A stretch of DNA of 64,000 nt from an uncultured Fibrobacterota bacterium (GTDB taxonomy: Bacteria > Fibrobacterota > Chitinivibrionia > Chitinivibrionales > FEN-1185). Within the stretch, counting starts at the first letter, position 1; every line of letters begins with the position of its first letter. The position numbers and the translations under genes were made by a program. Below are positions 1,861 through 56,500 of the stretch, piece after piece. The stretch lies in NCBI GenBank assembly GCA_963753345.1, contig CAVWBU010000015.1, forward strand, positions 50,337 to 114,336, read 5' to 3'. The notes beneath the pieces were generated by a model that had not been told where the DNA came from, searched no databases, and saw nothing but the letters and a program-made list of their open reading frames with translations.

Positions 1861-1931
1861 CGCGCCAGCCGTCAATTCTCGTCTTTTAACTCTTAGCTTT
1901 CAACTTCTCAACTCTCAACCTTCAACTTCTT
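1861..1931 (-). repeat. Truncated repeat module remnant (A 5'-flank homolog plus degenerate GTTGAANN tract)
   Basis: GCGCCAGCCGTCAATTCTC matches the GCGCCAGCCGAATTCTC flank of the A copy at 6588-6606. It is followed by TTCAAC/CTCAAC units (reverse complement GTTGAAGG, GTTGAGAA, GTTGAAAG). Confidence 0.5.
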
Positions 1932-6399: not shown

Positions 6400-6600
6400 A
6401 TGGGCGTTCCCCGCTCCCTCGACTCCGCTCGGGGGCGGGTCGGTCATCCCTGCGGGCTCGGCTGTTCGCCTCGTTGCCGGACCGCCCTAAGCCGTTGGCG
6501 CGGGTCGGCCGGCAATCCCGCTACGGCGGGACCGCTCCGGTCCCCCTAACGCGCGGCAGAAGAAATCCCATCAGTCAATCTCATCTCTTGCGCCAGCCGA
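6400..6600 (-). repeat. Family-A structured intergenic repeat (full length, mixed type I/II)
   Basis: The minus strand reads GGCTGGCGCAAGAG..TTGACT..GCCGCGCGTTAGGGGGACCGGAG..TCCCGC-CGTA-GCGGGA..TTGCCGG...CCGGCAACGAGGCGAACAGCC...GGGGAACGCCCAT. Confidence 0.85.
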
Positions 6601-6636
6601 ATTCTCATTAAGGAGATCAACGATCTTGCATGAATT

Positions 6637-6667
6637 TTTTCAACTCTTCAACTATTCAACGTTTCAA
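6637..6667 (-). repeat. GTTGAANN tandem octamer tract (4 units)
   Basis: The minus strand reads GTTGAAAC GTTGAATA GTTGAAGA GTTGAAAA, directly 3' of the B copy. Confidence 0.8.
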
Positions 6668-6828
6668 CTGCTCCCCGTGGGTGCCCCCACAACCATGTAT
6701 CGCGCTTGCCGCTGCACCATCAAGGGGTGCACCCTGGAGGGGGTAGCGGAGGACCAGACGCGCATCTCCGGAATGCTGGTTTGCTAATATGCGCGGTCGG
6801 GCCGCAGCTAGGGGGATACATCCCCCAT
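6668..6828 (-). repeat. Family-B structured intergenic repeat (subtype B1)
   Basis: The minus strand reads ATGGGGGATGTATCCCCCT...GGTCCTCCGCTACCCCCTCCAGGGTGCACCCCTTGATGGTGCAGCGGCAAGCGCGATACATGGTTGTGGGGGCACCCACGGGGAGCAG. It starts about 10 nt after the radical SAM stop codon. Confidence 0.85.
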
Positions 6829-6838
6829 AAAAGCTCTC

Positions 6839-16394: not shown

Positions 16395-16590
16395 ATGGGC
16401 GTTCCCCTCCCCCTCGACTTCGCTCGGGGTTGGGCCGGTCTCCCTCCGGGCTCGGCTTCTCGCCTCGTTGCCGCCTGCCACTAAGGCCCTTCGGGCCGTG
16501 GTCGGGCGGCGATGCGCTCTTGCTCACCCTCCGGTCCACCTAACGCGCGGCAACGAAATCTATTCTGTCAATCATTTCTTCTCGCGCCAG
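16395..16590 (-). repeat. Family-A structured intergenic repeat (type I, full length)
   Basis: The minus strand reads CTGGCGCGAGAAGAAATGATTGACAGAATAGATTTCGTTGCCGCGCGTTAGGTGGACCGGAGGGTGAGC...GCCGCC...GGCGGCAACGAGGCGAGAAGCC...GGGGAACGCCCAT. Its 3' end lies about 48 nt after the PorV-like stop codon. Confidence 0.85.
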
Positions 16591-16616
16591 TCTTCAACTC
16601 TCAACTTTCAACTATT
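16591..16616 (-). repeat. GTTGAANN-type tract (3 degenerate units)
   Basis: The minus strand reads GTTGAAA GTTGAGA GTTGAAGA. Confidence 0.6.
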
Positions 16617-16646
16617 TTTCTCGGTGCGGCCACAACAATGCATGGT
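16617..16646 (-). repeat. Family-B 3'-end fragment
   Basis: The minus strand reads CCATGCATTGTTGTGGCCGCACCGAGAAAA. Compare the B1 3' part ACATGGTTGTGGGGGCACCCACGAAGAG. Confidence 0.5.
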
Positions 16647-16694
16647 CTTGCACAAAGGGAAAAGTGAAAGTCACGTGATACCCGAAGAGTGGTA

Positions 16695-16872
16695 TTTGCG
16701 CCAGGGGCGACTGGAGGTCGTGCTGGAGCACGATGCTGCCCGGACCCGCCGCAACGCGGCATAGGGCCGTGGCAGCCCGAGGCCTTGGCCGAGACCGGAA
16801 GGAGAACCGGTGCCGAAGGCAGGCGCCCAATTCTTTAACTGGGTTTTTGAGACAGCCTGAACTTCCCCCGCA
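16695..16872 (+). repeat. Family-A repeat (type II, lacks 5' TTGAC arm) plus C extension
   Basis: GCGCCAGGGGCGACTGGAGGTCGTGC-TGGA-GCACGATGCTGCCCGGACCCGCCGC..GCGGCATAGGGCC..GGCAGCCCGAGGCC..GAGACCGGAAGGAGAACCGG...GGCGCCCAATT, followed by the C extension CTTTAACTGGGTTTTTGAGACAGCCTGAACTTCCCCCG. Confidence 0.8.
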
Positions 16873-22162: not shown

Positions 22163-22191
22163 ATGTAGAGCTGTATCAAAATAATGCAAAT

Positions 22192-22336
22192 TTGGTGGGG
22201 GAGGTGTCCCCCTGGCCCCAAGTCTCCTCGCCACGCTCCGCGCGTCTGCGGGGTCTTGGGGCACACCCCCTCGTGGGTAGCCCCCTATGGAGTTACTTTG
22301 CGAGAAAGAAGCCTAGGCTGCGGGGGCACCAAGAAA
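22192..22336 (+). repeat. Family-B structured intergenic repeat (subtype B2, divergent middle)
   Basis: TTGGTGGGGGAGGTGTCCCCCTGG....GGCACACCCCCTCGTGGGTAGCCCCCTATGGAGTTACTTTGCGAGAAAGAAGCCTAGGCTGCGGGGGCACCAAGAAAC. Confidence 0.8.
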
Positions 22337-22381
22337 CATTGTGGAATGATGATCGCAGAATGCGGAATAAGGCAGAAGAAT

Positions 22382-22436
22382 GTCATTGCGAGCCCCTCGT
22401 CAGAGCTCGGGATAAACTCCGCGAAGCACCGTAACT
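22382..22436. repeat. GTCATTGCGAGC-type short palindromic repeat (family D)
   Basis: GTCATTGCGAGCCCCTCGTCAGAGCTCGGG...CGCGAAGCACC. It shares the GTCATTGCGAGC..GCGAAGCA frame with 54358..54386. Confidence 0.5.
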
Positions 22437-22590
22437 AGGATCGCATACAATCCTAAAGGAGTAGCTGCGAAGCGAATCTACAGTTGATTCTTCAGAATAT
22501 GAATTCCTTTTGACCTCTCCCCCAACCCCTCTCCGGACAGAGAGGAGAGTGACAGATGCGAAAGCCGTGCTGAGAGTTGGGCTGTGTCTT

Positions 22591-22772
22591 ATGCGCCGCG
22601 CCAGGCCGGACTGCAAGGTGCGCCAGAGCGCATTGCCGGCCGACCCCGCCGCCAGGCATAGGGGCGGTTCGGCAACGAGGCCTTGGCCGAGCCTGGAAGG
22701 AGGGCCGCCGCCGTCTTCGGCGGGGCGCCCAAATCTTCTCTTGAGTTTTGAGACCGGCTGTGCTTCTCCCCC
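22591..22772 (+). repeat. Family-A repeat (type I, no 5' TTGAC arm) plus C extension
   Basis: GCGCCGCGCCAGGCCGGACTGCAAGGTGCGC-CAGA-GCGCATTGCCGGCCGACCCCGCC..GGGGCGGTTCGGCAACGAGGCCTTGGCCGAGCCTGGAAGGAGGGCCGCCGCC-GTCT-TCGGCGGGGCGCCCAAAT, followed by C (TTGAGTTTTGAGACCGGCTGTGCTTCTCCCCC). Confidence 0.8.
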
Positions 22773-25811: not shown

Positions 25812-25982
25812 TTGGGCGTTCCCCAAAAGGAAAGGCGCATTCATATGTGCCTTTCCTTTTGGGTCGGTCTCCCTCCGGGCTCGGCTGTTCGCCTCGTTGC
25901 CGCCTGTCCCAACCGCCTTCGGCTAGGGATCAGGCGGCAATGCGCTCCAGCGCACCCTCCGGTCCACCTAACGCGCGGGCAG
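25812..25982 (-). repeat. Family-A structured intergenic repeat (type I core, long terminal hairpin)
   Basis: The plus strand reads TTGGGCGTTCCCCAAAAGGAAAGGCGCA-ttcatat-GTGCCTTTCCTTTTGGGTCGG...CGCCTCGTTGCCGCC....GGCGGCAATGCGCTCCAGCGCACCCTCCGGTCCACCTAACGCGCGGG. Confidence 0.85.
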
Positions 25983-26041
25983 AGTGTGGGGTGCCGATGA
26001 CCTTCCAATTCTGATTGACAAAGTATACTTTTTCAGGCGGA

Positions 26042-26064
26042 GCGCAGGCGTTGCGCCTCGCGCA
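26042..26064. repeat. 23-nt GC palindrome-containing repeat (family E)
   Basis: GCGCAGGCGTTGCGCCTCGCGCA. The same string with one substitution occurs at 32410..32432. Confidence 0.55.
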
Positions 26065-26085
26065 GGTTGCGGCGCTTTTACAAAC

Positions 26086-26139
26086 TTCTTAACTGCTCAA
26101 CTTCTCAACCTCTCAACTTTCTTCTCGCGGTGCCCCCCC
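26086..26139 (-). repeat. GTTGAGNN octamer tract plus family-B 3'-end fragment
   Basis: The minus strand reads GGGGGGGCACCGCGAGAAG (B 3' end), followed by GTTGAGAG GTTGAGAA GTTGAGCA GTTAAGAA. Confidence 0.6.
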
Positions 26140-26974: not shown

Positions 26975-27142
26975 ATGGGCGTTCCCTTGGCAGAGGCGCA
27001 AGATTTTTCGCCTCTGCCAAGGGCGGCCCTCGCTCCGGTCTCGGCCTTCGGCCTCGGGCGGCCTGCCACAAAGGCCCTGCGGGCCGTGGTCAGGCCGCAC
27101 CGTGCTCCAGCGCGGCCTCCGTTCCGGCCTAACGCGGCGCAG
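26975..27142 (-). repeat. Family-A structured intergenic repeat (type II-like, no 5' arm)
   Basis: The plus strand reads ATGGGCGTTCCCTTGGCAGAGGCG-caagattttt-CGCCTCTGCCAAGGGCGGCC..GGTCTCGGCCTTCGGCCTCGGGCGGCCTGCC...GGCCTAACGCGGCGCAG. It starts 18 nt after the lexA stop codon. Confidence 0.8.
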
Positions 27143-27205
27143 AGGTTTGTTGGCCTGTCTGTTTTATTCTGCATCCGCCCTAACTTTTTGCAGGTTTTTA
27201 AACAG

Positions 27206-27412
27206 ATTGGCGCGAGATGTGATATTGACAGAATAGACTTCAGTTGCCGCGCGTTAGGTGGACTGGAGGGTGAGCAAGAGCGAATTGCCGGCCGACCCCG
27301 GCCGAAGGCCCTCGGGGCGGTCCGGCAACGAGGCGAAAGCCGAGCCCGGAAGGAGACCGACCCCAGGTAGGAGGCGAACGGCCGTGCGCCTCTACTTGGG
27401 GAAACGTCCCAA
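27206..27412 (+). repeat. Family-A structured intergenic repeat (type I, full length)
   Basis: ATTGGCGCGAGATGTGATATTGACAGAATAGACTTCAGTTGCCGCGCGTTAGGTGGACTGGAGGGTGAGC..ATTGCCGGCCGACCCCGGCCGAAGGCCCTCGGGGCGGTCCGGCAACGAGGCGAAAGCCGAGCCCGGAAGGAGACCGACCCCAGGTAGGAGGCG..CGCCTCTACTTGGGGAAACGTCCCAA. It ends 34 nt before the dnaE2 ATG. Confidence 0.88.
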
Positions 27413-30592: not shown

Positions 30593-30605
30593 ATATAAAT
30601 AAAAT

Positions 30606-30762
30606 TTTAGTGGGGGAAGGCTCCCCCTCGCTTCGGCTCGGCGCTCGTATTTTCAAAGTTCATCTCATTCCGCGCCGGTCCTACGCTACCCCCTCGTGGG
30701 TAGCCCCCTAGAGAGTTGATTGGCAAGAATGAAACTTGGACTGCGGGGGCACCAAGAAAGAG
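30606..30762 (+). repeat. Family-B structured intergenic repeat (subtype B2)
   Basis: TTTAGTGGGGGAAGGCTCCCCCTCGCTTCGG...CCGGTCCTACGCTACCCCCTCGTGGGTAGCCCCCTAGAGAGTTGATTGGCAAGAATGAAACTTGGACTGCGGGGGCACCAAGAAAGAG. It starts 14 nt after the dnaE2 stop codon. Confidence 0.85.
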
Positions 30763-30783
30763 AGTTGACAGTTGAAAGTTGGA
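30763..30783 (+). repeat. Degenerate GTTGANNN tract
   Basis: AGTTGACA GTTGAAA GTTGG. Confidence 0.45.
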
Positions 30784-30784
30784 G

Positions 30785-30916
30785 GCTGGCGCAAGAAATA
30801 CCAATTAACTGAATAAATTACTCCTGCCGTGCGTTAGGCAGCCCGAGGCCGAAGGCCGAGACCGGAAGGACGGCCGACCCGACCCCGAGCTTAGTCGAGG
30901 GGAAGGGGAACGCCCT
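30785..30916 (+). repeat. Family-A repeat, internally deleted type II derivative
   Basis: GCTGGCGCAAGAAATACCAATTAACTGAATAAATTACTCCTGCCGTGCGTTAGGCAG joins directly to CCCGAGGCCGAAGGCCGAGACCGGAAGGACGGCCGACCCGACCCCGAGCTTAGTCGAGGGGAAGGGGAACGCCCT. The central helices are missing. It ends 32 nt before the imuB-like ATG. Confidence 0.75.
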
Positions 30917-30947
30917 GCTTTAAGCTTTAATTGCAGAAAAAGAACAA

Positions 30948-32153: not shown

Positions 32154-32300
32154 AGAGCTGGGCGCCTGCCTTCGGCACCGGTTCTCCTTCCGGTCTCGGC
32201 CGCAGGCCTCGGGCTGCCTGCCACGAAGGCCCTGCGGGCCGTGGTCAGGCAGCACCGCGCTTTGGCGCGGCCTCCAGTCGCCCCTGGCGCGCGGCAGAAG
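32117..32300 (-). repeat. C extension plus family-A repeat (type II)
   Basis: The plus strand reads GGGGGAGAGGTACAGCCTGTCTCAAAACCCAGTTGAAGAG (C), then CTGGGCGCCTGCCTTCGGCACCGGTTCTCCTTCCGGTCTCGGCCGCAGGCCTCGGGCTGCC...CCTCCAGTCGCCCCTGGCGCGCGGCAGAAG. It is colinear with the reverse complement of 16695..16872. Confidence 0.8.
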
Positions 32301-32432: not shown

Positions 32433-32499
32433 GTTTCTGCTGGAAAGGGTGTGGGTGCAGATCGCCGCACGCCGTGTCGGCGGGCGGAAGCTGCACCCA

Positions 32500-32530: not shown

Positions 32531-32553
32531 TATTTTCACTAATATTGATTTCT

Positions 32554-33489: not shown

Positions 33490-33525
33490 CGCATTGATCC
33501 GTACAACGTGTTGCGTTCTCGACTT

Positions 33526-34786: not shown

Positions 34787-34822
34787 GTTGAAGCGTTGAA
34801 AAGTTGAAACGTTGAAAAGTTC
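34787..34822 (+). repeat. GTTGAANN tandem octamer tract (4.5 units)
   Basis: GTTGAAGC GTTGAAAA GTTGAAAC GTTGAAAA GTTC. No B copy lies upstream in this case. Confidence 0.8.
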
Positions 34823-34867
34823 TAAATTAAAAATAAAACGTCCCCCCTTGATTTATAGCGAATGCCG

Positions 34868-35051
34868 ATTGGCGCGAGAAAAACTAATTGTCTAAAAGGG
34901 AGGCTATTGCCGCGCGCCAGGCAGGATCGGAAGGTGAGCTAAAGCGAATCGCTGGCCGACCCTCGCCGTGGGCGCTAAGGGCGGTCCAGCAACGAGGCCG
35001 TAGGCCGAGCCTGGAGGGAGGGCCGCCGCCGCGTAGCGGCGGGGCGCCCAT
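34868..35051 (+). repeat. Family-A structured intergenic repeat (type I, full length, divergent)
   Basis: ATTGGCGCGAGAAAAACTAATTGTCTAAAAGGGAGGCTATTGCCGCGCGCCAGGCAGGATCGGAAGGTGAGC..ATCGCTGGCCGACCC...GGGCGGTCCAGCAACGAGGCCGTAGGCCGAGCCTGGAGGGAGGGCCGCCGCC-GCGT-AGCGGCGGGGCGCCCAT. Confidence 0.85.
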
Positions 35052-39258: not shown

Positions 39259-39420
39259 ATGGGCGTTTCCCTCCCCCTCGACAAAGCTCGGGGTCGGGTC
39301 GGCCCTCCCTCCGGTCTCGGCCTTCGGCCTCGGGCTGCCACGGCCCTATGGCCCACAGGGCCGGGTCCGGGCAGCATCCCGCTTTGGCGGGACCTCCGGT
39401 CCTGCCTAACGCATGCGCAT
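39259..39420 (-). repeat. Family-A structured intergenic repeat (type II, no 5' TTGAC arm)
   Basis: The plus strand reads ATGGGCGTTTCCCTCCCCCTCGACAAAGCTCGGGGTCGGGTCGGCCCTCCCTCCGGTCTCGGCCTTCGGCCTCGGGCTGCCACGGCCCTATGGCCCACAGGGCCGGGTCCGGGCAGCATCCCGCTTTGGCGGGACCTCCGGTCCTGCCTAACGCATGCG. It starts 6 nt after the bioB stop codon. Confidence 0.85.
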
Positions 39421-41211: not shown

Positions 41212-44499
<3,288 letters not shown>

Positions 44500-44512
44500 G
44501 GAAGACATTGTC

Positions 44513-44673
44513 GAGTGGGGGAGGTCTCCCCTCGCTACGGCCCGGCCGCGCAGGTTTGCAAAGTAATATTCCGAATGTGCGCGTCCGGTCCTCCGCTACC
44601 CCCTCCTGGGTGGCCCCCTTGATGGCGCAGTGGCAAGCGCGACACATGGTTGTGGGGGCACCGACGAAGAGCA
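44513..44673 (+). repeat. Family-B structured intergenic repeat (subtype B1)
   Basis: GAGTGGGGGAGGTCTCCCCTCGCTACGGCCC...CCGGTCCTCCGCTACCCCCTCCTGGGTGGCCCCCTTGATGGCGCAGTGGCAAGCGCGACACATGGTTGTGGGGGCACCGACGAAGAGCA. It starts 14 nt after the carB stop codon. Confidence 0.88.
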
Positions 44674-44709
44674 GTTGAAAAGTTGAAACGTTGAATCGTT
44701 GAAACGTTC
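44674..44709 (+). repeat. GTTGAANN tandem octamer tract (4.5 units)
   Basis: GTTGAAAA GTTGAAAC GTTGAATC GTTGAAAC GTTC. Confidence 0.85.
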
Positions 44710-44744
44710 AAGAGATCGAGATTCGGAACTTTTCTTGTGGAGCA

Positions 44745-44844
44745 ATTGGCGGGAGACCCGGCCTCAAGGCATAGGGCGGGCGGCAACGAGGCGAATAGCC
44801 GGCCCGGAGGGAGACCGACCCCGCGAAGCGGGGGAACGCCCAAT
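44745..44844 (+). repeat. Family-A repeat, internally deleted type I derivative (~100 nt)
   Basis: ATTGGCGGGAGACCCGGCCTCAAGGCATAGGGCGGGCGGCAACGAGGCGAATAGCCGGCCCGGAGGGAGACCGACCCCGC-GAA-GCGGGGGAACGCCCAAT. It keeps both termini but lacks the TTGAC arm and the GCCGCGCGTTAGG..GGAGGG part. Confidence 0.8.
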
Positions 44845-44906
44845 GATTTTATTAATTGTTTATTTATTGCAAACTTCACCAATATATTAAAAACGGGAGC
44901 CTCACC

Positions 44907-46514
44907 ATGCCCAAGTACATCTTTGTGACAGGCGGAGTCGTGTCGTCCCTCGGAAAGGGAATTACCGCGGCGTCAATCGGGGTGCTTCTCAAGTCGCGCG
45001 GGCTGCGGATCGTGCACCAGAAATTCGATCCGTACCTCAACGTCGATCCGGGCACCATGAACCCGTACCAGCACGGTGAAGTGTACGTCACCGACGACGG
45101 CGCGGAGACCGACCTCGATCTCGGCCACTACGAACGGTTCACCGGCGTCACCACCAACAAGAACTGCAACTACACCACGGGCCGCATCTACGACGCCATC
45201 ATCAAGAAGGAGCGCAGGGGAGACTACCTGGGAGGAACCGTGCAGGTGGTTCCGCACGTCACCACCGAAATCTGCAACAGCATCCGCAGCGTTGCCTCGG
45301 CGGAGGTCGACGTGGTGATATGTGAAATCGGCGGCACGGTGGGAGACATAGAAAGCCTTCCGTTCCTCGAGGCGCTGCGGCAGTTTAGGCTTCAGGAAGG
45401 CCGCAATAACGTGCTGTTTATCCATGTGACGCTTATCCCGTATTTGAAAATGGCGGGTGAAATCAAAACAAAGCCGACCCAGCATTCGGTGGGAAAACTT
45501 CGCGAAATAGGCATCATGCCCGACATGCTGATCTGCCGCACCGAGAAACACATCGACAAGGACTCGCGCAAGAAGATCTCCCTGTTCTGCAACGTTGACG
45601 AAGAGGCGGTGATCGAGGCTTTCGACGCTCCCCATTCGATCTACGAAGTGCCGCTCGACTTTGCGGCGCAGGACATAGATCAGGTGATCATCGATATTCT
45701 GGGGCTGCGGGCGGGCCGGCGCAACCTCAAGGCGTGGCGGGACTACGTCGACCGCGTGATCAACGCGGAAAAAACGGTGAATATCGCCATCGTGGGAAAA
45801 TATTCCGAACTGCTTGACGCGTACAAATCGATTCATGAATCTCTCAACCACGCCGGCGCGTTTCACAGCGCGAAAGTCAAAATACTGAGCGTGTCGGCCG
45901 AAGACATCGAAAGAAACGGCGCCGACAAAATTCTCACGGATGCCGACGGCATATTGGTGCCCGGCGGATTCGGGGGCAGAGGCGTTGAAGGTAAAATTCT
46001 CGCCGTGAAATACGCGCGGGAAAACAAGGTGCCGTATTTCGGCATCTGTTACGGCATGCATATGGCAGTGATCGAATTCGCCCGCAATGTCCTGAAGCTT
46101 GAGTGCGCCGACACCACGGAGAACAACGCGGAAACAAAGTACCCCGTCATCCATTTGATGGAGGAACAGAAACGCATCATGAACCTGGGCGGCACAATGC
46201 GCCTCGGCGCTTTCCCCTGCACGCTCAAGAAAGGGACTGCAGCGCGCAAGGCATACGGCAAAGATCAGATCAGCGAACGCCACCGCCACCGGTATGAATA
46301 CAACAACGATTATCGGGAACAATTCGAGAAGGCCGGACTTGTCGTATGCGGTGAATCGCCGGACGGCATGCTTGTGGAAATGGTGGAAATAGAAAATCAT
46401 CCATGGTTCGTGGCCGTGCAGTTTCACCCGGAATTCAAGTCGAGGCCGGTTGATCCGCATCCGCTGTTCAGGGATTTTGTGGGGGCGAGTATTAAGTATG
46501 GCGGGAAGAAATAG
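44907..46514 (+). CDS. pyrG: CTP synthase
   Basis: 535 aa from [19 protein letters not shown]. GATase domain with GICYGMH. Confidence 0.97.
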
Positions 46515-46525
46515 AGATAAGATTC

Positions 46526-46649
46526 TTGGTGGGGGAAGTATCCCCCCTGCCTGCGGCCCTGCGGTCCTCCGGCACCCCCTCCTGGGTGCTCCCCATGATG
46601 GTGCAGCGGCGAGCGCAATACATGGTTGAGGGGGCACCCACGAGGAGCA
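46526..46649 (+). repeat. Family-B structured intergenic repeat (subtype B1, short)
   Basis: TTGGTGGGGGAAGTATCCCCCCTGCCTGCGGCCCTGCGGTCCTCCGGCACCCCCTCCTGGGTGCTCCCCATGATGGTGCAGCGGCGAGCGCAATACATGGTTGAGGGGGCACCCACGAGGAGCA. It starts 12 nt after the pyrG stop codon. Confidence 0.9.
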
Positions 46650-46689
46650 GTTGAAAAGTTGAAACGTTGAACAGTTGAAGAGTTGAAAA
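46650..46689 (+). repeat. GTTGAANN tandem octamer tract (5 units)
   Basis: GTTGAAAA GTTGAAAC GTTGAACA GTTGAAGA GTTGAAAA. Confidence 0.88.
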
Positions 46690-46727
46690 ACAAAGAAAGA
46701 AACGTTGGTTGATGTATGCGAATGCGG

Positions 46728-46924
46728 GTTGGCGCGAGAAGAAGTAGTTGACTGAAAGGAATTCTGTTACCGCGCGTTAGGTGGACCGGAGGGTGAGCTA
46801 AAGCGAATTGCCGGTCGACCCGGCCGAAAGGCATAGGGCGATCCGGCAACGAGGCCGAACGGCCGAGCCCGAAGGAAGACCGACCCGACCCCGAGCGAAG
46901 TCGAGGGGGAGGGGAACGCCCAAT
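46728..46924 (+). repeat. Family-A structured intergenic repeat (type I, full length; reference copy)
   Basis: GTTGGCGCGAGAAGAAGTAGTTGACTGAAAGGAATTCTGTTACCGCGCGTTAGGTGGACCGGAGGGTGAGCTAAAGCGAATTGCCGGTCGACCCGGCCGAAAGGCATAGGGCGATCCGGCAACGAGGCCGAACGGCCGAGCCCGAAGGAAGACCGACCCGACCCCGAGCGAAGTCGAGGGGGAGGGGAACGCCCAAT. Confidence 0.9.
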
Positions 46925-46940
46925 TCTTATCGTATCTTGT

Positions 46941-46963
46941 AAAGCGGTGCCCCCACCAAGAAC
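46941..46963 (-). repeat. Family-B 5'-end fragment
   Basis: AAAGCGGTGCCCCCACCAAGAAC is identical to the string at 39654-39676. It lies 33 nt upstream of the purF start. Confidence 0.6.
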
Positions 46964-46995
46964 TACTGATTGATATTTAAACTTAACAATAGGCA

Positions 46996-48408
46996 GTGAT
47001 ATCCATGAGCACCCTCATCGACGGCATGGGCGAACAGTGCGGCATCTTCGGGATTTTCAACAGCCACGAAGCAGCGGAACTGACCTACCTCGGCCTGTAC
47101 GCGCTCCAGCACCGCGGCCAGGAAAGTTCCGGCATCGCGGTGTCGAACCAGACCACCGTCACTATGTACAAGGCAATGGGCCTGGTGAACCAGGTTTTCA
47201 AGCATCAGAGTTCGATTGACAATCTCAAAGGATCGAGCGCCATCGGCCACAACCGGTACTCCACCACGGGATCGTCCGATCTCGCCAACGCCCAGCCGAT
47301 TCTCGTCAACTGCCGCATGGGCCAGATAGCGGCCGCCCACAACGGCAACCTTACCAACACCGCGGCGCTCCGCACCGAAATGGAGAACGACGGTTCAATT
47401 TTCTCCTCGACGACCGACACCGAGGTAATCGTGCACCTCATCGCGCGGTCGAAGCGCGAAACCGTGGACGCCATGATCCTTGACGCGCTCTCGCGCGTCA
47501 AGGGGGCGTATTCCATTTTGTTCCTTACCAAGGACGCGCTGTACGGCGCGCGCGACCCGCGGGGCTTTAGGCCGCTCATCCTTGGAAGGACAGGCGACAT
47601 TTCGTTCCTGTCGTCGGAGACCTGCGCGTTCGACCTGGTGGGAGCGTCGATCGAGCGCGAGGTGAAGCCGGGTGAGATGGTGCGTATTGACAAGAACGGA
47701 ATCCAGAGCTTTTCCATCCCCGTGTTCGAACGCATCAAGCGTCCGTCGTACTGCATCTTCGAATACATTTACTTTTCGCGCCCCGATTCGTTCGTGTTCG
47801 GTGAAAACGTGGACAAGATACGGCGGAGGCTCGGCCGCCAACTCGCCAAGGAGCACCCAGTCAAGAGCGCGGACTTCGTGATGGGCGTTCCCGACTCGGC
47901 GACAACGGCCGCGCTCGGGTTCGCGCAGGAGAGCGATCTCAGGTTCGACATCGGGCTCATCCGCAACCACTATGTGGGCAGGACCTTCATCCAGCCCGTC
48001 CAGGCGGGAAGGGACCTCGGGGTACGCATCAAGTTCAATCCTGTCAAGGGCGTTCTCAAGGGCAAGAAAGTTGTCGTTGTCGACGATTCCATTGTGCGCG
48101 GCACCACCATGCGGAAGATTGTGCAGCTCCTTCGCACGGCGGAACCTGCCGAGATCCACCTCCGCATTTCGTCGCCGCCCATTGTGAGCCCGTGCTTCTA
48201 CGGCATCGACATGCCCACCAAGAAGGAACTCATCGCCTCGGAGAAAACGGTCGAGGAAATCCGTAAGTACCTCGAGGTGGATTCGCTCGGCTACCTTTCC
48301 ATAGACGGCCTGCTATCGGTTGTCAACGAACCGCGCTCGAATTTCTGCGCCGCGTGCTTTACGGGGGAATATCCGGTTGAGGTTTCCGGCGAGAAAGGTC
48401 ACTGCTAA
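46996..48408 (+). CDS. purF: Amidophosphoribosyltransferase
   Basis: 470 aa. N-terminal propeptide, then CGIFGIF (the Ntn Cys). PRTase motif VVVVDDSIVRGTT. C-terminal Cys ligands. The start could be the GTG at 46996 or the ATG at 47005. Confidence 0.95.
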   Translation: MISMSTLIDGMGEQCGIFGIFNSHEAAELTYLGLYALQHRGQESSGIAVSNQTTVTMYKAMGLVNQVFKHQSSIDNLKGSSAIGHNRYSTTGSSDLANAQPILVNCRMGQIAAAHNGNLTNTAALRTEMENDGSIFSSTTDTEVIVHLIARSKRETVDAMILDALSRVKGAYSILFLTKDALYGARDPRGFRPLILGRTGDISFLSSETCAFDLVGASIEREVKPGEMVRIDKNGIQSFSIPVFERIKRPSYCIFEYIYFSRPDSFVFGENVDKIRRRLGRQLAKEHPVKSADFVMGVPDSATTAALGFAQESDLRFDIGLIRNHYVGRTFIQPVQAGRDLGVRIKFNPVKGVLKGKKVVVVDDSIVRGTTMRKIVQLLRTAEPAEIHLRISSPPIVSPCFYGIDMPTKKELIASEKTVEEIRKYLEVDSLGYLSIDGLLSVVNEPRSNFCAACFTGEYPVEVSGEKGHC

Positions 48409-48422
48409 TTTCAGGAGTGTTT

Positions 48423-48581
48423 TTTGTGGGGGAAGGTTCCCCCTCGCTCCGGCCCGTCGCTCCGTCAAATCTCTGCTCGTTGGTCCTTACGCGCCGGTCC
48501 TCCGCTACCCCCTCCTGGGTAGCCGCCTTGACAAAGCAGCTGCGAGATCAAACATTGTTGTGGCGGCACCCACGAAGAGCA
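48423..48581 (+). repeat. Family-B structured intergenic repeat (subtype B1, GCCGCC/GGCGGC variant)
   Basis: TTTGTGGGGGAAGGTTCCCCCTCGCTCCGGCCC....CCGGTCCTCCGCTACCCCCTCCTGGGTAGCCGCCTTGACAAAGCAGCTGCGAGATCAAACATTGTTGTGGCGGCACCCACGAAGAGCA. It starts 15 nt after the purF stop codon. Confidence 0.88.
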
Positions 48582-48591
48582 ATGGTAAAAG

Positions 48592-48630
48592 AGTTGAGAA
48601 GTTGAGTAGTTGATAACTGGTAGTTGATTG
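48592..48630 (+). repeat. Degenerate GTTGANNN tract
   Basis: GTTGAGAA GTTGAGTA GTTGATAA CTGGTA GTTGATTG. Confidence 0.6.
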
Positions 48631-48647
48631 ATCTCTTGGGTATTTCG

Positions 48648-48848
48648 ATTGGCGTGAGAAGAAGTGGTTGACTGACAAGACTCCTTCTGCCGCGCGTTAG
48701 GCAGGACTGGAGGTCCCGCTAGAGCGGGATGCCGCCCGGACCCGGCCGCTACTGCGGCATAGGGCCGAGGCGGCCCGAGGCCGAAGGCCGAGACCGGAAG
48801 GACGGCCGACCGGAGCCTGCGTCTTGACGAAGGCTCGGGAAACGCCCA
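48648..48848 (+). repeat. Family-A structured intergenic repeat (type II, full length)
   Basis: ATTGGCGTGAGAAGAAGTGGTTGACTGACAAGACTCCTTCTGCCGCGCGTTAGGCAGGACTGGAGGTCCCGC-TAGA-GCGGGATGCCGCCCGGACCCGGCCGC-TACT-GCGGCATAGGGCCGAGGCGGCCCGAGGCCGAAGGCCGAGACCGGAAGGACGGCCGACCGGAGCCT..AGGCTCGGGAAACGCCCA. It ends 15 nt from the stop codon of the convergent ychF-like gene. Confidence 0.9.
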
Positions 48849-48863
48849 CCTTGATGATTTGAA

Positions 48864-49934
48864 CTAGACATTGAAACGAATCGACAAAATATCGCCGTCC
48901 TTGACAATGTATTCCTTGCCCTCCATCCTGAATTTCCCCGCGTCCTTGACGCCCTGTTCCGATCCCGCGGCAACGAGATCGTCGTAGGAGAAGCACTCTG
49001 CGCGGATGAAGCCGCGCGCAAGGTCGGTATGGATGGCGGCGGCGGCCTCGACCGCGGTGACGCCCCGCACGATCTCCCAGGCGCGCACCTCGTCTTCCCC
49101 AACGGTAAAGAAGCTTATATATCCGAGCGTCTCGTACGCGACAAGCGTGAGCCGGTCGGCCGCAGATTCACCGATTCCCATGTCGTCCATGAATGCCTGA
49201 ATCTCCGCGGCATCGGTAAGCCGCGAGAGTTCCATCTCGAAATTCCCCGCGCATTCGATGATCTTGTAGCGGCCGGCCAGCTCCTTGACCAGCGCCGGGT
49301 CCTTCTTGAACCGGTCTTCACTGGAGTTGACGATAAGGAAGAGCGGCTTCTGGGTAAGGAGCTGGAAACCGCGGAGCATTTTCTTCTCGTCGGCCGAGAA
49401 TTCGAGCGTGCGGATAGGCTGCATGGCGGTAAGCGCTTCCATAATTCTTTTAAGCAGCTTTTCCTCGGAGGCCAATGCCGGCGTCATGCCGCCCTTTGCG
49501 GATGCGGCTATCTTTGCTATCCGGTTTTCCGCGATGATCTGGTCCGACAGCAAGAGCTCCTCCTCGATGGCCTGCAGGTCGGCCGCAGGCGAGGGGGCGA
49601 TGGAAGGATCGGGCGCAAAATTCCTGAGAACAACCGCAAGGCTGTCCATGGTTTTTACAAGGCGCATAAGGTCCGGAGCGAACAGCTCCTGTTTCTTCGA
49701 CTCGTCACGTTCCACGCCCACGAAATCGACCAGCTCGATTCTGGCGTACACGGTTTTTTTCGGATTGTACATCCGCGAAAGCTTGGTGATCCGCTCGTCG
49801 CGCACGTCAACAACAGCGACGTTCGGTTCAGCTTTCGCCGCGGCGTAGGCCGAGACAAGCGCCTGGGATTTCGACAGCGCGTTGAAAATGGTGGTGGTGC
49901 CGGATTTTGGAAGACCGATAAGGCCGATTTTCAA
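48864..49934 (-). CDS. ychF: YchF/Obg-like ATPase with TGS-like C-terminus; Walker A lysine replaced
   Basis: 356 aa with a TTG start. The C-terminus GFIRAECFSYDDLV..GSEQGVKDAGKFRMEGKEYIVKDGDILSIRFNV is YchF-like. The P-loop reads GLPKSGTT where YchF has GLPNVGKS. Confidence 0.8.
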   Translation of the reverse strand: MKIGLIGLPKSGTTTIFNALSKSQALVSAYAAAKAEPNVAVVDVRDERITKLSRMYNPKKTVYARIELVDFVGVERDESKKQELFAPDLMRLVKTMDSLAVVLRNFAPDPSIAPSPAADLQAIEEELLLSDQIIAENRIAKIAASAKGGMTPALASEEKLLKRIMEALTAMQPIRTLEFSADEKKMLRGFQLLTQKPLFLIVNSSEDRFKKDPALVKELAGRYKIIECAGNFEMELSRLTDAAEIQAFMDDMGIGESAADRLTLVAYETLGYISFFTVGEDEVRAWEIVRGVTAVEAAAAIHTDLARGFIRAECFSYDDLVAAGSEQGVKDAGKFRMEGKEYIVKDGDILSIRFNV

Positions 49935-50201: not shown

Positions 50202-50312
50202 AAGCGGGCATGGCGCGGCTGCGTGAGTTGGTGGCCCGTGTATGTGGCATTTGTTTCTTGGCGCGCGTCAAATTTTGTCTTTTCAATAAAACTTTGCAAA
50301 ATATAGCAATAT

Positions 50313-50747
50313 TTAGTGCTTCTTGTGCAATGTTATTGTAGGTAAAACCCATTCTCCTTTGGCATTTTGTTTTAACGATTGAAGCTGTGCGTTGGAGAGG
50401 CTGTCGTAGTATGTTGTAATGCTATCTCCCTTTATCAGAATCCTTAATGGACCACACTCCCATTGCTCTACCTTGTCGTTTATGCAGTGGGACATCGTGA
50501 CTCCGCCAGCTCCGAAATTGCCAATTGAATCTGGGTGAGACGGCTGCATCCCTGCAACATCTTGCGGAGTAAGATAGAAATCAAGATTACTGGAATAAAC
50601 GGAAAGACTTGGGTAGAAAATAGCTCCGCTATCAACGGCCAAGGAACCCCTATAAGCTATGAGTTCGCTAGATGTATCCCAGCAACACGAAAAGAAACTA
50701 AAGGGAAGAAACATAAGAAAGAGGCCGGAAAAGTTACTTCTGTACAT
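50313..50747 (-). CDS. Small hypothetical secreted/lipoprotein-like protein in the AT-rich islet
   Basis: 144 aa from MYRSNFSGLFLMFLPFSFFSCCWD (hydrophobic leader with Cys). AT-rich codon usage unlike neighbouring genes. No recognisable family. Confidence 0.4.
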   Translation of the reverse strand: MYRSNFSGLFLMFLPFSFFSCCWDTSSELIAYRGSLAVDSGAIFYPSLSVYSSNLDFYLTPQDVAGMQPSHPDSIGNFGAGGVTMSHCINDKVEQWECGPLRILIKGDSITTYYDSLSNAQLQSLKQNAKGEWVLPTITLHKKH

Positions 50748-51306: not shown

Positions 51307-51577
51307 TGAAATGACCTTGACATGCGCAAACAAAGATTTCTAATAACTGTGAAAATCAGCGCGCGTCTCTTCAATGCCACAAACATGGACACCAACTACA
51401 GGTATGTCGCGATTCCACATTCCACCCAAAATGGCTTCTTATCCTACTTATCGCCGATGGCAGTCATACAGTTGATAACAAAACAATTCATGCGTTCCCT
51501 GGAAGCAAGGACAATTGCAAAAGCGGACCCAGCGAAGAAAGTGACAAAGACATGAAGTAAGTAAGTGCATGGTGCCA

Positions 51578-51737
51578 CCACTCTTCGTGGGTGCCGCCTC
51601 AGCGATGTATGGTCTCGCAGCTGCTTTGCCAAGGCGGCTACCCAGGAGGGGGTAGCGGAGGACCGGCGCGTAAGAACCAACGAGCAGCGATTTGAGGGAG
51701 CGATGGGCCGGAGCGAGGGGGAGCCATCCCCCGACGA
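51578..51737 (-). repeat. Family-B structured intergenic repeat (subtype B1, GCCGCC/GGCGGC variant)
   Basis: The minus strand reads GTCGGGGGATGGCTCCCCCTCGCTCCGGCCC...CCGGTCCTCCGCTACCCCCTCCTGGGTAGCCGCCTTGGCAAAGCAGCTGCGAGACCATACATCGCTGAGGCGGCACCCACGAAGAG. It is the closest relative of the 48423 copy. Confidence 0.85.
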
Positions 51738-51840
51738 ACCTGTTTTTCTTTGATCAAACTCCGCTCTTTTCCCGTCCACCCCCTTTCCCATTCCAACCGC
51801 GCATGGCTTCTTGTATTTTCATAGTGAGGAACCACGCCCA

Positions 51841-54115: not shown

Positions 54116-54127
54116 ACAATTAGTTTT

Positions 54128-54291
54128 CTTAGTGGGGGAGGTATCCCCCTCGCTCCGGTCCGGTCGCGCTGTTTGTAAATCACCATCCAGAATGTGCGCG
54201 CCCGGTCCTCCGCTACCCCCCTCCTGGGTGGCCCCCAAGTAAGTTTGTTTGCAAGAAAGTTGCTTCGGTTGGGGGGCACCCACGGAGAGCA
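54128..54291 (+). repeat. Family-B structured intergenic repeat (subtype B2)
   Basis: TCTTAGTGGGGGAGGTATCCCCCTCGCTCCGGTCC....CCGGTCCTCCGCTACCCCCCTCCTGGGTGGCCCCCAAGTAAGTTTGTTTGCAAGAAAGTTGCTTCGGTTGGGGGGCACCCACGGAGAGCA. It starts about 13 nt after the stop codon of the TPR gene. Confidence 0.88.
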
Positions 54292-54325
54292 GTTGAAAAG
54301 AAAAAGCGTTGAAAAGTTGGAAAGC
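54292..54325 (+). repeat. Degenerate GTTGAAAA tract
   Basis: GTTGAAAA GAAAAAGC GTTGAAAA GTTGGAAAGCC. Confidence 0.6.
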
Positions 54326-54357
54326 CAATGCCCGAAAACAGGACATGGGAAACCAAG

Positions 54358-54386
54358 TGTCATTGCGAGCGCAGCGAAGCAATCAC
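54358..54386. repeat. GTCATTGCGAGC-type short palindromic repeat (family D)
   Basis: GTCATTGCGAGCGCAGCGAAGCAATCAC, with ATTGC/GCAAT arms. It is inserted between the octamer tract and the A copy. Confidence 0.55.
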
Positions 54387-54435
54387 CCTACAACTTTTAC
54401 CTAAAAGAACCTTGTCTGATTTGCTGCGCATGCCG

Positions 54436-54650
54436 ATTGGCGCAATAAATATGAATTGACAGAATAGATTCCCTCTGCCGCGCGCTAGGGGCGACTGGAG
54501 GTCCCGCCATAGCGGGATGCCGCCCGGGCCCGCCGCTGCTGCGGCATAGGGCCGGGGCGGGCCCGAGGCCGCAGGCCGACGACCCTTGGAAGCACCCGAA
54601 GGGGTGGACCGGAAGGAGAACCGACCCCGCAAAGCGGGGGAACGCCCAAT
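54436..54650 (+). repeat. Family-A structured intergenic repeat (type II, full length with extra internal hairpin)
   Basis: ATTGGCGCAATAAATATGAATTGACAGAATAGATTCCCTCTGCCGCGCGCTAGGGGCGACTGGAGGTCCCGC-CATA-GCGGGATGCCGCCCGGGCCCGCCGC-TGCT-GCGGCATAGGGCCGGGGCGGGCCCGAGGCCGCAGGCCGACGACCCTTGGAAGCACCCGAAGGGGTGGACCGGAAGGAGAACCGACCCCGC-AAA-GCGGGGGAACGCCCAAT. It ends 26 nt before the gltX ATG. Confidence 0.9.
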
Positions 54651-54676: not shown

Positions 54677-56149
54677 ATGTCATCACCTATTCGCGTCAGA
54701 TTTGCTCCATCACCCACAGGATACCTCCATGTGGGCGGGGCGAGGACCGCGCTGTTCAATTACCTTTTTGCAAAGCACAGCGGCGGGACGTTTATTCTCC
54801 GGATCGAAGACACCGACCGGTCCCGTTTCGTCGAAGGCGCACTCAGGGAAATCTACGACGGTCCTGCATGGCTCGGCCTTTCGTGGGACGAGGGGCCGGA
54901 TGTGGGCGGCAATTTCGGCCCCTATGTCCAATCGGAGCGCCTCGACCTCTATCAGAAATACGCGGGAGATCTTCTGGACAGGGGTTTGGCCTACCGTTGC
55001 TTCTGCACCCCGCAGCGTCTCGAAGAGGTGAGGCGTGACCGCGAAAAGGCAAAGATGCTTACCGGGTATGATCGGCATTGCCGCGACCTAGACAAAGAGG
55101 AAGTCGCAAACAGCCTGAAGGAAGGGAAGAAGTACACGGTCAGGCTTAAGGTTCCCCTGGACAGAAACATTGTGTTTAGCGACATGATAAGGGGGTCCAT
55201 AGAATACAAAAGCGATGTGCTCGACGACCTTGTTCTCCTCAAGTCGGACGGGTTTCCCACCTACCATCTCGCAAACGTGGTTGACGATCACGAAATGAAA
55301 ATATCGCATGTGCTGCGCGGCGACGAGTGGATTTCGTCAACGCCGCGCCACATCCTGCTGTACGAGGCATTCGGATGGACGCCGCCCGCGTTCGCGCACA
55401 TGCCCGTGATACTCGACCCGTCCGGTGGAAAACTGTCAAAACGCAAGGGCGCGGCGTCGGTGACGGATTACCGGAACAGGGGCATCCTGCCGGAGGCGCT
55501 GTTCAATTTTCTGGCGCTGCTCGGCTGGTCGCCGGGCGGCGGCGACGAGCGCGAGAAAATGACGCGCCAGGAAATCATCGAGGCATTCGCGCTCGACAAG
55601 ATTTCTCCCAAGGCCGCGGTGCTCGACGAAAAGAAGCTCGACTGGATGAACGGACGGTACATGGCCGAATATCCCGCTGAGCGGCTTGTTGCTGATGTCT
55701 GCAGGCTGTGGAAGGAAAAGCAGACCATTGCCCCGGACAGGAGCGAAAGCGACCCGTACCTGCTCGCCGTGGTGCGAATGTTCAAGGACAGGTCAAAGCG
55801 CATTAACGAAATCGCTGATAATTCAGTGTATTTTTTTCACGATCCGGCGACATATGAGGAAAAGGCAGCCACGAAACATTTCACATTGCAGGCGGCAGAA
55901 ATTCTGGAAATGTTGGCTGATAAGATAGCTGTGCTTGAACCCTATTCCAAGGATTCGCTTGATGCTCTTATTCATGCTTGCGCTTCTGATACGGGTTCAC
56001 AGATAGGAGATCTTATTCATCCGACAAGACTGGCCGTGAGCGGCGTGAGTTTTGGACCGGGGTTGTTTGAGATGATGGAAACTATAGGTAAAGAAACTGT
56101 GGTGAGGAGAATAAGAAAGGCAATTGATAAAATAAGAAAGAAAGATTGA
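54677..56149 (+). CDS. gltX: Glutamate--tRNA ligase
   Basis: 490 aa. RVRFAPSPTGYLHVGGARTAL (HIGH-type motif), RIEDTD, and KLSKRKG (KMSKS). Confidence 0.95.
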   Translation: MSSPIRVRFAPSPTGYLHVGGARTALFNYLFAKHSGGTFILRIEDTDRSRFVEGALREIYDGPAWLGLSWDEGPDVGGNFGPYVQSERLDLYQKYAGDLLDRGLAYRCFCTPQRLEEVRRDREKAKMLTGYDRHCRDLDKEEVANSLKEGKKYTVRLKVPLDRNIVFSDMIRGSIEYKSDVLDDLVLLKSDGFPTYHLANVVDDHEMKISHVLRGDEWISSTPRHILLYEAFGWTPPAFAHMPVILDPSGGKLSKRKGAASVTDYRNRGILPEALFNFLALLGWSPGGGDEREKMTRQEIIEAFALDKISPKAAVLDEKKLDWMNGRYMAEYPAERLVADVCRLWKEKQTIAPDRSESDPYLLAVVRMFKDRSKRINEIADNSVYFFHDPATYEEKAATKHFTLQAAEILEMLADKIAVLEPYSKDSLDALIHACASDTGSQIGDLIHPTRLAVSGVSFGPGLFEMMETIGKETVVRRIRKAIDKIRKKD

Positions 56150-56150
56150 T

Positions 56151-56272
56151 TTGGTGGGGGAAGTTTCCCCCTGCCTGCGGCCCTACGGTCCTCCGGCACC
56201 CCCTCGTGGGTGGCCCCCAAGGAAGTTGATTTGCAAGAAAGATGCCTCGGTTGGGGGGCACCCACGAAGAGC
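56151..56272 (+). repeat. Family-B structured intergenic repeat (subtype B2, short)
   Basis: TTGGTGGGGGAAGTTTCCCCCTGCCTGCGGCCCTACGGTCCTCCGGCACCCCCTCGTGGGTGGCCCCCAAGGAAGTTGATTTGCAAGAAAGATGCCTCGGTTGGGGGGCACCCACGAAGAGC. It begins directly after the gltX TGA (56147-56149). No octamer tract follows. Confidence 0.9.
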
Positions 56273-56335
56273 GGCTGTAGTTAATAATCAAATGACAAGA
56301 GGTTAATTCCCTCTTTGTAAGGAAAGCGGGGAAAA

Positions 56336-56500
56336 CCTTCTGTCCGCGCGTTAGGGGCGACTGGAGGTCCCGCTGAGGCGGGATGCCGCCCGGACCCGGC
56401 CCTGTGGGCCATAGGGCCGTGGCGGCCCGAGGGCGGAGCCCGAGACCGGAAGGAGAACCGACCCGAGCCCGAGCGCAAGCACGGGCGAGGGGAACGCCCA
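56336..56500 (+). repeat. Family-A structured intergenic repeat (type II, no 5' TTGAC arm)
   Basis: CCTTCTGTCCGCGCGTTAGGGGCGACTGGAGGTCCCGC-TGAG-GCGGGATGCCGCCCGGACCCGGCCCTGTGGGCCATAGGGCCGTGGCGGCCCGAGGGCGGAGCCCGAGACCGGAAGGAGAACCGACCCGAGCCCG..CGGGCGAGGGGAACGCCCA. It ends 40 nt before the glnS ATG. Confidence 0.88.

Follow-up and report, generated by a model that had tools for sequence, protein, structure and literature searches.

A 64-kb stretch of DNA (hereafter the window) from an uncultured Fibrobacterota bacterium of soil or peat (Chitinivibrionales; FEN-1185; metagenomic contig CAVWBU010000015.1) carries many intergenic copies of two unrelated structured blocks, A and B, together with tracts of an octamer. 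These elements are abundant, keep a conserved fold and a strict syntax, and are restricted to intergenic DNA and to one clade, in which they turn over rapidly. On balance, we favor the view that they represent a new lineage-specific family of modular, non-autonomous, structured interspersed repeats, similar in kind to BIME/REPIN, BOX, and Correia elements, that colonizes the intergenic DNA of an uncultured Chitinivibrionales clade. The elements are probably co-transcribed into untranslated regions (UTRs).

The repeat modules and their copy number

Copies were searched for with nhmmer profiles seeded with the three modules at 44500–48863 and, for A, with a covariance model (CM); an octamer tract was counted only if it had at least three units. 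A preliminary description of the window, based on its letters, had placed B, octamers, and A in this order on the plus strand of the carB/pyrG/purF/ychF gaps, with three to five octamers each. All three modules are present as described, with five, five, and three units:

44508..44680, plus strand: B after carB (nhmmer), comprising H1 (GGGGGA..UCCCCC), the variable hairpin, H3 (CCUCCU loop), H4, and the purine-rich tail
44674..44713, plus strand: octamer tract, 5 x GTTGAANN
44703..44841, plus strand: A with the 5' half replaced (A44742; CM, 33.4 bits); true homology from ~44740 to 44845
46520..46657, plus strand: B after pyrG (nhmmer), short form without the variable hairpin H2
46650..46689, plus strand: octamer tract, five units
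46727..46925, plus strand: A of subfamily I (CM, 111.6 bits), with a TTGAC-containing leader (46727–46772) and the core fold (46773–46921)
48418..48589, plus strand: B after purF (nhmmer)
48593..48616, plus strand: octamer tract, 3 x GTTGAKNA
48647..48852, plus strand: A of subfamily II (nhmmer and CM), leader and core, with its 3' end 11 nt from the convergent ychF stop

The ychF gene is on the minus strand. The third module therefore lies between convergent genes and is no leader into ychF. The gene names used here and below (carB, pyrG, purF, ychF, TPR, gltX, dnaE-like, and radical SAM) agree with the earlier ones and are supported by Pfam.

Sixteen A copies (2 of them partial) and 9 B copies were found in the window with the nhmmer profiles, along with 9 octamer tracts of the unit GTTGANNN; the earlier hand counts of about 16, 10, and 10 were thus close. 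The CM recovers 15 of the 16 A copies, and the internally deleted A30784 was detected by nhmmer only. Taken together, the A, B, and octamer elements account for 4372 nt, or 6.8% of the window, and every A and B copy is intergenic. Two diagnostic patterns gave 13 and 7 exact matches in the window, against 0.00 expected from dinucleotide shuffles. The A and B repeats also occur in three GTDB metagenome-assembled genomes (MAGs), in 120 JGI metagenome contigs from peat or soil, and in L001, an independent assembly of a strain 95–98% identical in the flanking genes. Therefore, the assembly artefact considered in the preliminary description is ruled out.

Fold of the A block

The core of A (~130–165 nt) forms a multi-helix fold of 10 helical segments, and RNAalifold, run unaided, and the CM alignments give the same architecture. 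It is closed by helix P1 (GCGUU/AACGC, covarying to GCGCC/GGCGC). A long irregular stem consists of P1a, P1b, and Px, which are split by conserved purine-rich internal loops, with GGAC and GNA on the 5' side and GNAGGGAG on the 3' side. The junction bears three hairpins: P2, which carries a GAGC...GCGA tandem G-A motif; P3, which is long and variable at its tip; and P4, a GGCC-GAA-GGCC hairpin between invariant CGAGG and CCGAG. Directly before the 3' strand of P1 lies P6, a hairpin of variable sequence. Conserved GGAG/GGAGG internal loops are also found in A, and ~44% of the copies have a leader of ~65 nt with TTGAC-like boxes.

Compensatory substitutions maintain this fold among copies that are 60–85% identical to each other. 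In a set of 51 copies from the window and the MAG loci, 93.2% of the cells are paired, compared with 30–48% when the partners are slid along the alignment, and 24 of the 36 pairs are doubly changed. An independent set of 149 metagenome copies gave 93.5% against at most 47%, with double changes in 30 of the 36 pairs; in neither set did any of 500 shuffles reach the observed value. In the second set, pairs are split between U-A (72) and C-G (65) in P1b and between G-C (122) and A-U (19) in Px. The noncanonical pairs are asymmetric (G-U 192 versus A-C 113; G-A 121 versus U-C 67), which argues, moderately and not decisively, that the annotated strand is the strand that folds, as RNA or as single-stranded DNA. 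A local hairpin considered earlier, 'P5' (CCGG..CCGG), was replaced by the covarying long-range helices P1a, P1b, and Px. A longer helix in A6597m, created by a 2-nt insertion, was also rejected, as other copies with the same insertion do not bear it out.

One full-length A homologue was found in a 70%-GC Deltaproteobacteria MAG (L042), upstream of a beta-propeller gene. It scores 47.7 bits and has compensated P1, Px, and P2 helices, whereas none of 76 control loci selected with the same pattern exceeds 22.8 bits. Tandem repeats of ~62 nt (L042, 2300–2480) lie just upstream of this A-like element. The preliminary description recognized no described family in the repeats, and this holds against Rfam 15: a CM search of the window at gathering thresholds gave 0 matches, and at E<=10 only noise appeared in 44480–48900 and around the L042 homologue. 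A scan for tRNA and tmRNA found none, and a search of the literature on repeats in Fibrobacteres or Chitinivibrionales found nothing relevant.

Smaller sequences are associated with A at several places. Insertions of a 27-nt hairpin, CGACCCTTGGAAGCACCCGAAGGGGTG, occupy three different positions within A copies (window 54580–54606; L043, L046, L114 (twice), L123, L127, L129, L202, and L210). It always stands after GA and usually before GACCG, and it has the appearance of a very small hairpin that moves or recombines at specific sites. Another nested hairpin, of ~70 nt, is found in the P3 tip of two A copies from the same MAG (L017, 517–720; L101, 2628–2835). Downstream of some A copies lies a conserved extension, TTTTGAGACAGGCTG(A/T)AC(T/C)TCCCCC (window 16830–16870, 22735–22775, and 32115–32160; L026 and L082). 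Its end is the reverse complement of the B start, GGGGGAAGT; therefore, on the opposite strand, a B-like GGGGGAAG motif again stands after the stop codon of the neighboring gene.

B block and octamer tract

B is ~120–175 nt long and has three or four hairpins, three of which are conserved. The 5' hairpin H1 has the form GGGGGA-N4-UCCCCC, H2 is a variable region of at least three types, and H3 combines a GCUACCC/GGGUAGC stem with a near-invariant CCUCCU loop. H4 (CCCCC/GGGGG, covarying to CCGCC/GGCGG) encloses a variable insert and is followed by a purine-rich tail. The three conserved hairpins are 92.6% paired, with double changes in four pairs; the covariation is modest because the sequence is highly conserved.

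The octamer tract has 0–9 units of the GTTGAA, GTTGAG, or GTTGAC type and is located at the junction of the inner block ends. It follows B and, in places without B, stands ahead of A. When an entire module is folded, the minimum-free-energy structure pairs CCUCCGG of B with CCGGAGG of A, a contact for which no covariation was found. Pairing between the B loop and A (CCUCCU with GGAGG or CGAGG) is speculation, as the sequences are complementary but no covariation was seen by eye across modules. A small hairpin repeat, CATTGCGAGC...GCGAAGCAAT, is present between B and A at window positions 22384–22430 and 54361–54383 and at ~290–330 in L053, and it shares the GAGC..GCGA tandem G-A motif with helices P2 and P6 of A.

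Position and syntax

Counted to its first G, the B hairpin stands 17, 16, and 19 nt past the stop codons of carB, pyrG, and purF. The distance from the end of A to the next gene is 61 nt for pyrG and 70 nt for purF (both to the start codon) and 11 nt for ychF (to the stop codon). Most full B copies have their hairpin 6–57 nt after the stop of a co-oriented gene. Among the metagenome B copies, 29 of 45 follow a co-oriented stop (median 17 nt) and 12 lie beside the start of a divergent gene. The 'strong preference for gene 3' ends' of the preliminary description exists as a bias, not as a rule. The 3' end of A near gene boundaries stands before a co-oriented start in 32 cases (median 53 nt) and faces a convergent stop in 34 (median 32 nt).

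In 42 of 51 cases, B is followed by a co-oriented A within 26–293 nt. In tandem spacers, the B-to-A order is co-oriented with the genes 16 times (10 in metagenome contigs and 6 in the window) and anti-oriented 4 times (binomial p ~0.012), which is a preference and not a rule; the order also occurs in 6 divergent and 2 convergent spacers. Twenty head-to-head pairs (<-A A->) were found, and A copies within 450 nt of each other never stand tail to tail or in tandem. Since B->A and <-A A-> are the only assemblies, the 3' end of A or the 5' end of B always points outward, toward the flanking gene. The partners in head-to-head pairs are 63% identical, compared with 73% for random A pairs, and usually belong to different subfamilies. 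Such heterotypic doublets resemble the alternating Y/Z units of BIMEs and fit avoidance of long palindromes.

Distribution and turnover

A scan of a genome collection found true copies in Fibrobacteres bacterium fen_1185, Fibrobacterota MFD03044.bin.1.58, and Chitinivibrionales SMAG_U9540. Apart from L042, the other pattern matches in the collection (Streptomyces etc.) were chance matches in high-GC coding DNA, with at most 22.8 bits by CM, and four pattern matches in viral contigs, all inside coding regions, were also due to chance. The family is thus confined to the Chitinivibrionales clade, with one convincing A homologue in a Deltaproteobacteria MAG. The density of A is uneven: one copy was found in 21.6 kb of a related locus, L100, compared with 16 in the window.

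Presence or absence at orthologous spacers, a comparison proposed in the preliminary description, is polymorphic between relatives. The nearest PyrG proteins (88–93% identity) belong to uncultured Fibrobacterota, and named relatives are annotated as Chitinivibrionales, Chitinispirillaceae, or Fibrobacter sp. Through these PyrG homologues, three orthologous carA-carB-pyrG-purF regions were retrieved:

L100 (PyrG 93% identical): A only in carB/pyrG; 154-nt spacer and no module in pyrG/purF
L101 (PyrG 88% identical): B, A, and an IS4-type transposase in carB/pyrG; 88-nt spacer and no module in pyrG/purF
L102 (PyrG 89% identical): module in carB/pyrG; module in pyrG/purF

All three gaps are filled in L102, where the purF/ychF module is inverted, with its A cut exactly at the purF stop codon, and the A in pyrG/purF belongs to a different subfamily from that in the window. 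Even the 95–98% identical strain L001 differs. Its carB/pyrG spacer has octamers and an intact A without B, compared with B, octamers, and a half-replaced A in the window, and two of its neighboring spacers share a near-identical octamer-leader segment that is unlike that of the window. Small hairpin repeats are nested in modules, and truncated and internally deleted copies are common. The polymorphism at orthologous loci indicates that the modules turn over and homogenize much faster than the genes diverge.

The transposase in L101 (8752–9927; MFD03044 MAG) is of the IS4-type DDE class (DUF4372 + DDE_Tnp_1) and lies between an A copy and pyrG. In the same regions, a small PF05635 (23S_rRNA_IVP) gene is found between carA and carB in L100 (5898–6257) and L101 (4466–4834), while carA and carB abut without this gene in the window and in L102.

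Comparison with known systems

Modularity or a doublet shape, structure, co-transcription, and restriction to a clade are known from the BOX and REPIN families (PMC3049150, PMC3116915). Like BIMEs and REPINs, the present elements are extragenic, clade-restricted, structured, and high in copy number, have fixed unit orientations with specific linkers, lack target-site duplications, and often stand just after stop codons. REPINs are inverted doublets (PMC3116915), and such doublets occur here in the 20 <-A A-> pairs. The heterotypic partners of these pairs recall the BIME alternation. BIME clusters alternate two unit types. REPIN arms are similar, whereas the A partners are less alike than random copies. 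A is also unlike a REP sequence: a REP is an imperfect palindrome of 20–40 nt, whereas A (135–165 nt) has three hairpins on a long irregular stem and a side hairpin. A further difference from BIMEs and REPINs is the second, unrelated block B, and no RAYT was found in the genes screened.

The architecture, with no homology implied and no sequence similarity expected, resembles that of BOX elements (boxA-boxB(n)-boxC) of Streptococcus pneumoniae, in which two distinct end modules flank a variable tandem center. BOX elements are likewise intergenic with extensive secondary structure, and co-transcription is a feature of BOX. The central unit of BOX is a 45-nt module. Here, in contrast, it is an 8-nt microsatellite, the end modules are 2–3 times larger, and A has deep covariation and a cross-phylum relative. 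BOX is confined to one species group and has been judged parasitic (PMC3049150).

Miniature inverted-repeat transposable elements (MITEs) and Correia/NEMIS elements, which derive from DDE transposons, are also non-autonomous, intergenic, and able to be co-transcribed, and the ends of the present composites are weakly inverted (TGGGGG...CGCCCA). They differ from MITEs and Correia elements in the absence of target-site duplications and in terminal inverted repeats of at most 6 nt, and from young MITE families in that the copies are 60–85% identical with compensatory changes. With HEARO/IscB omega-RNA, IS605-orfB RNAs, and group IIC introns, the elements share a large conserved fold in many copies per genome, a fold 3' end at the element boundary, and placement just downstream of genes. 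Unlike HEARO, IS605-orfB RNAs, and group II introns, they have no Rfam match, no adjacent open reading frame (ORF), and no domain V/VI features. In particular, neither Intron_gpII nor group-II-D1D4 matched even at E<=10, and a group II intron could accommodate neither the octamer tract nor the A fold.

Nature of the elements

The preliminary description had offered two readings, a composite BIME/MITE-like mobile element and an RNA punctuation cassette. Copy number, intergenic location, polymorphism, nested and truncated copies, and the fixed syntax broadly uphold the former and lead us to favor an interspersed repeat family. In such a family, the A fold may be kept because it would be recognized, as single-stranded nucleic acid, by a single-copy trans-acting enzyme encoded elsewhere. 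Alternatively, the fold may survive because, with the elements probably co-transcribed in 3' or 5' UTRs of the neighboring genes, a GC-rich structure after a stop codon would do no harm or would bring a slight benefit, through 3'-end protection or termination. Recombination or gene conversion between copies, favored by the octamer tract, could homogenize and reshuffle the modules.

Several observations weigh against this reading. Target-site duplications, which the preliminary description had proposed to look for, are no more frequent than in controls: in 66 composites, the direct-repeat lengths equal those of shuffled flank pairings. The elements are therefore not classical MITEs. Their outer ends share only TGGG(G/C)G...C(G/C)CCCA, and the terminal inverted repeats, of at most 6 nt, are weak; no IS with matching ends is known. 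Nor was a mobilizing gene found. As noted in the preliminary description, there is no transposase, reverse transcriptase, or recombinase by domain search in the ~55 window ORFs, and no mobilizing gene occurs among the multi-copy clusters of flanking genes, which comprise ABC ATPases, glycoside hydrolases, and other housekeeping families (474 genes around 185 A copies were clustered, and the multi-copy clusters were inspected). In particular, no RAYT, tnpA, or tnpB is found among the window ORFs or the multi-copy flanking genes. No clean empty site could be aligned at pyrG/purF: the L100 and L101 spacers are unrelated in sequence, so exact insertion boundaries cannot be defined. Without duplications or an alignable empty site, transposition itself is not demonstrated, and recombination alone could give the polymorphism. 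Furthermore, no REP, BOX, or Correia unit comes near the A fold in complexity, the full-length L042 homologue in another phylum hints at a function of its own for A, and the 16:4 co-orientation of B->A with tandem genes is not required of a purely selfish element.

Host-selected RNA punctuation, in which B would act as a cis 3'-UTR stabilizer or terminator after the stop codon and A would provide the following cistron with a structured 5' leader or an insulator, appears unlikely. It finds weak support in the sense bias of B, with 29 of 45 hairpins placed 6–57 nt after a co-oriented stop, to which the 16:4 bias in tandem spacers and the strong structural conservation can be added. The near-invariant CCUCCU in H3, the conserved GGAG/GGAGG loops of A, and the complementarity of B and A in the module fold also fit it, and these loops might pair together or engage ribosomes. 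However, the B-loop variants do not covary, by eye, with the A of the same module. The orientation of A is mixed: 34 of 66 classifiable copies face the stop of a convergent gene, whose mRNA would therefore carry the complement of A, and B->A also occurs in 6 divergent and 4 anti-oriented spacers. The flanking genes are functionally unrelated, the module is missing at pyrG/purF in relatives with 88–93% identical PyrG, and at purF/ychF L102 has it inverted. A role in gene-specific regulation ('punctuation') is thus not supported and is disfavored: housekeeping loci are polymorphic for the presence of modules, and A is found in both orientations. Nor does A behave as a riboswitch or cis-acting leader, with 32 copies before starts versus 34 at convergent stops, functionally unrelated neighbors, and no copy at pyrG/purF in L100 and L101. 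We consider it highly doubtful that A is a multi-copy small-RNA gene family, with a promoter in the TTGAC-containing leader and an end near CGCCCA and a U-rich tail, and that B and the octamers are unrelated neighbors. The TTGACA-like boxes of the leader, copies that end in a hairpin and a U-tract (CCCAG..CUGGGUUUU), head-to-head pairs that look like divergent transcription units, and the wobble and G-A asymmetry in favor of the A strand would agree with such genes. Yet the leader is absent from more than half of the copies and has no -10 element at a workable spacing, and a consensus promoter/terminator scan of 44400–49000 showed no enrichment and nothing consistent inside the modules. Truncated and internally deleted copies are common, and the co-oriented A after 42 of 51 B copies indicates that the blocks are not independent.

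It is also improbable that A and B are the ends, or the guide or scaffold RNA, of an unseen autonomous element and are mobilized in trans. Candidates would be IS200/IS605-type PATEs with an omega-RNA-like right end, an IS110-type bridge RNA, a RAYT-like system, or a retroelement, with the A fold as the enzyme-bound RNA or single-stranded DNA. The size and complexity of A (~150 nt, a multi-way junction, conserved internal loops, and tandem G-A) are nearer to protein-bound scaffold RNAs than to REP hairpins, and its 3' end is always the outer boundary beside variable flanking DNA. The absence of target-site duplications would fit HUH or serine-type mechanisms, and the A homologue in another phylum also agrees with such a system. 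RAYTs are typically single-copy (PMC5581495), so missing one in partial data is expected. On the other hand, no TnpA, TnpB, IscB, IS110, or reverse-transcriptase gene was found beside any of the ~250 copies, among the window ORFs and the multi-copy flanking genes screened; the only transposase seen is the IS4-type insertion beside a module in L101. The Rfam models of HEARO, IS605-orfB, and group II introns do not match, and B and A share no common subterminal hairpin, H1 of B and P6 of A being unrelated. Finally, A is unusually complex and has a cross-phylum relative, and B is biased in orientation; for these reasons, we keep a small chance that A is an unrecognized structured RNA class with its own biochemical role, as a scaffold or guide used by a single-copy trans-acting enzyme or as a catalytic or self-propagating RNA. 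Such an RNA would be old enough to occur in both Fibrobacterota and a Deltaproteobacteria lineage and would have multiplied to hundreds of copies in Chitinivibrionales. B and the octamers would then serve as partner modules of A, and the strict B->A and <-A A-> syntax would be a consequence of how the elements propagate.

Most interspersed repeats of bacteria are simple hairpins, whereas this family fills ~7% of a housekeeping region with a ~150-nt multi-junction fold. Covariation in A is as strong as in accepted functional RNAs, yet its turnover at the strain level is like that of selfish DNA. If an enzyme recognizes the A fold, the repeats point to an undescribed mobilization system; as a precedent, HEARO RNA later proved to be the guide of IscB. 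If A and B act in mRNA, they would represent genome-wide modular structuring of UTRs in a poorly known phylum. In practice, the A and B models explain assembly breaks at these spacers (contig L001 ends inside a module), can serve as a clade marker, and should be masked in riboswitch or small-RNA searches of peat and soil metagenomes.

Other features of the window

Outside the three gaps described above, the following elements were found in the window:

1897..1926, minus strand: lone octamer tract of four units, with no recognizable A or B near it
6402..6835, minus strand: complete B-octamer-A module following the radical SAM gene (B 6662–6835, octamers 6637–6668, A core 6402–6553)
16397..16828: head-to-head A pair of different subfamilies between convergent genes (A, minus, 16397–16547; octamers, minus, 16591–16612; A, plus, 16697–16828)
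22187..22730, plus strand: B (22187–22343) and A (22597–22730) in a divergent spacer, with the hairpin repeat 22384–22430 between them
25814..26117, minus strand: solo A (25814–25975) and octamers (26086–26117); the 3' end abuts the stop of the upstream plus-strand gene
26977..27383: head-to-head A pair (A, minus, 26977–27136; A, plus, 27250–27383; CM)
30602..30916, plus strand: B (30602–30771), three octamers (30764–30785), and an internally deleted A (30784–30916) after the dnaE-like gene
32160..32291, minus strand: solo A (CM)
34787..35049, plus strand: octamers (34787–34818), leader, and A core (34913–35049) without B; the 3' end faces the stop of a minus-strand HD-domain gene
39261..39413, minus strand: solo A (CM), 8 nt from the stop of the upstream plus-strand gene
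51573..51743, minus strand: solo B, not after a stop codon, beside a low-GC island
54124..54647, plus strand: B (54124–54299), partial octamers, hairpin repeat (54361–54383), and A (54481–54647), upstream of gltX
56146..56499, plus strand: B (56146–56280) and A (56347–56499) after gltX, without an octamer tract (CM)

The low-GC island (50260–51340; GC 0.40 versus 0.575 for the window), with the solo B at its edge, contains two minus-strand ORFs without a Pfam match and is probably foreign DNA. An SOS-mutagenesis-type cluster at 26067–34746 includes lexA, the dnaE-like gene, a Y-family polymerase (30948–32153), and a dinB-like gene (33526–34746, minus strand). In this cluster, a PHP-domain ORF (27446–27793) is separated by 231 nt from the rest of the dnaE-like polymerase (28025–30592), and the gene looks split or frameshifted. 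A GlnRS/GluRS-type synthetase is encoded in two overlapping frames (56541–57647 and 57313–58254), which suggests a frameshift or a sequencing error. A 300-nt direct repeat (9774–10073 and 10603–10902) is 71% identical between its copies, and the ORFs there have no Pfam match.

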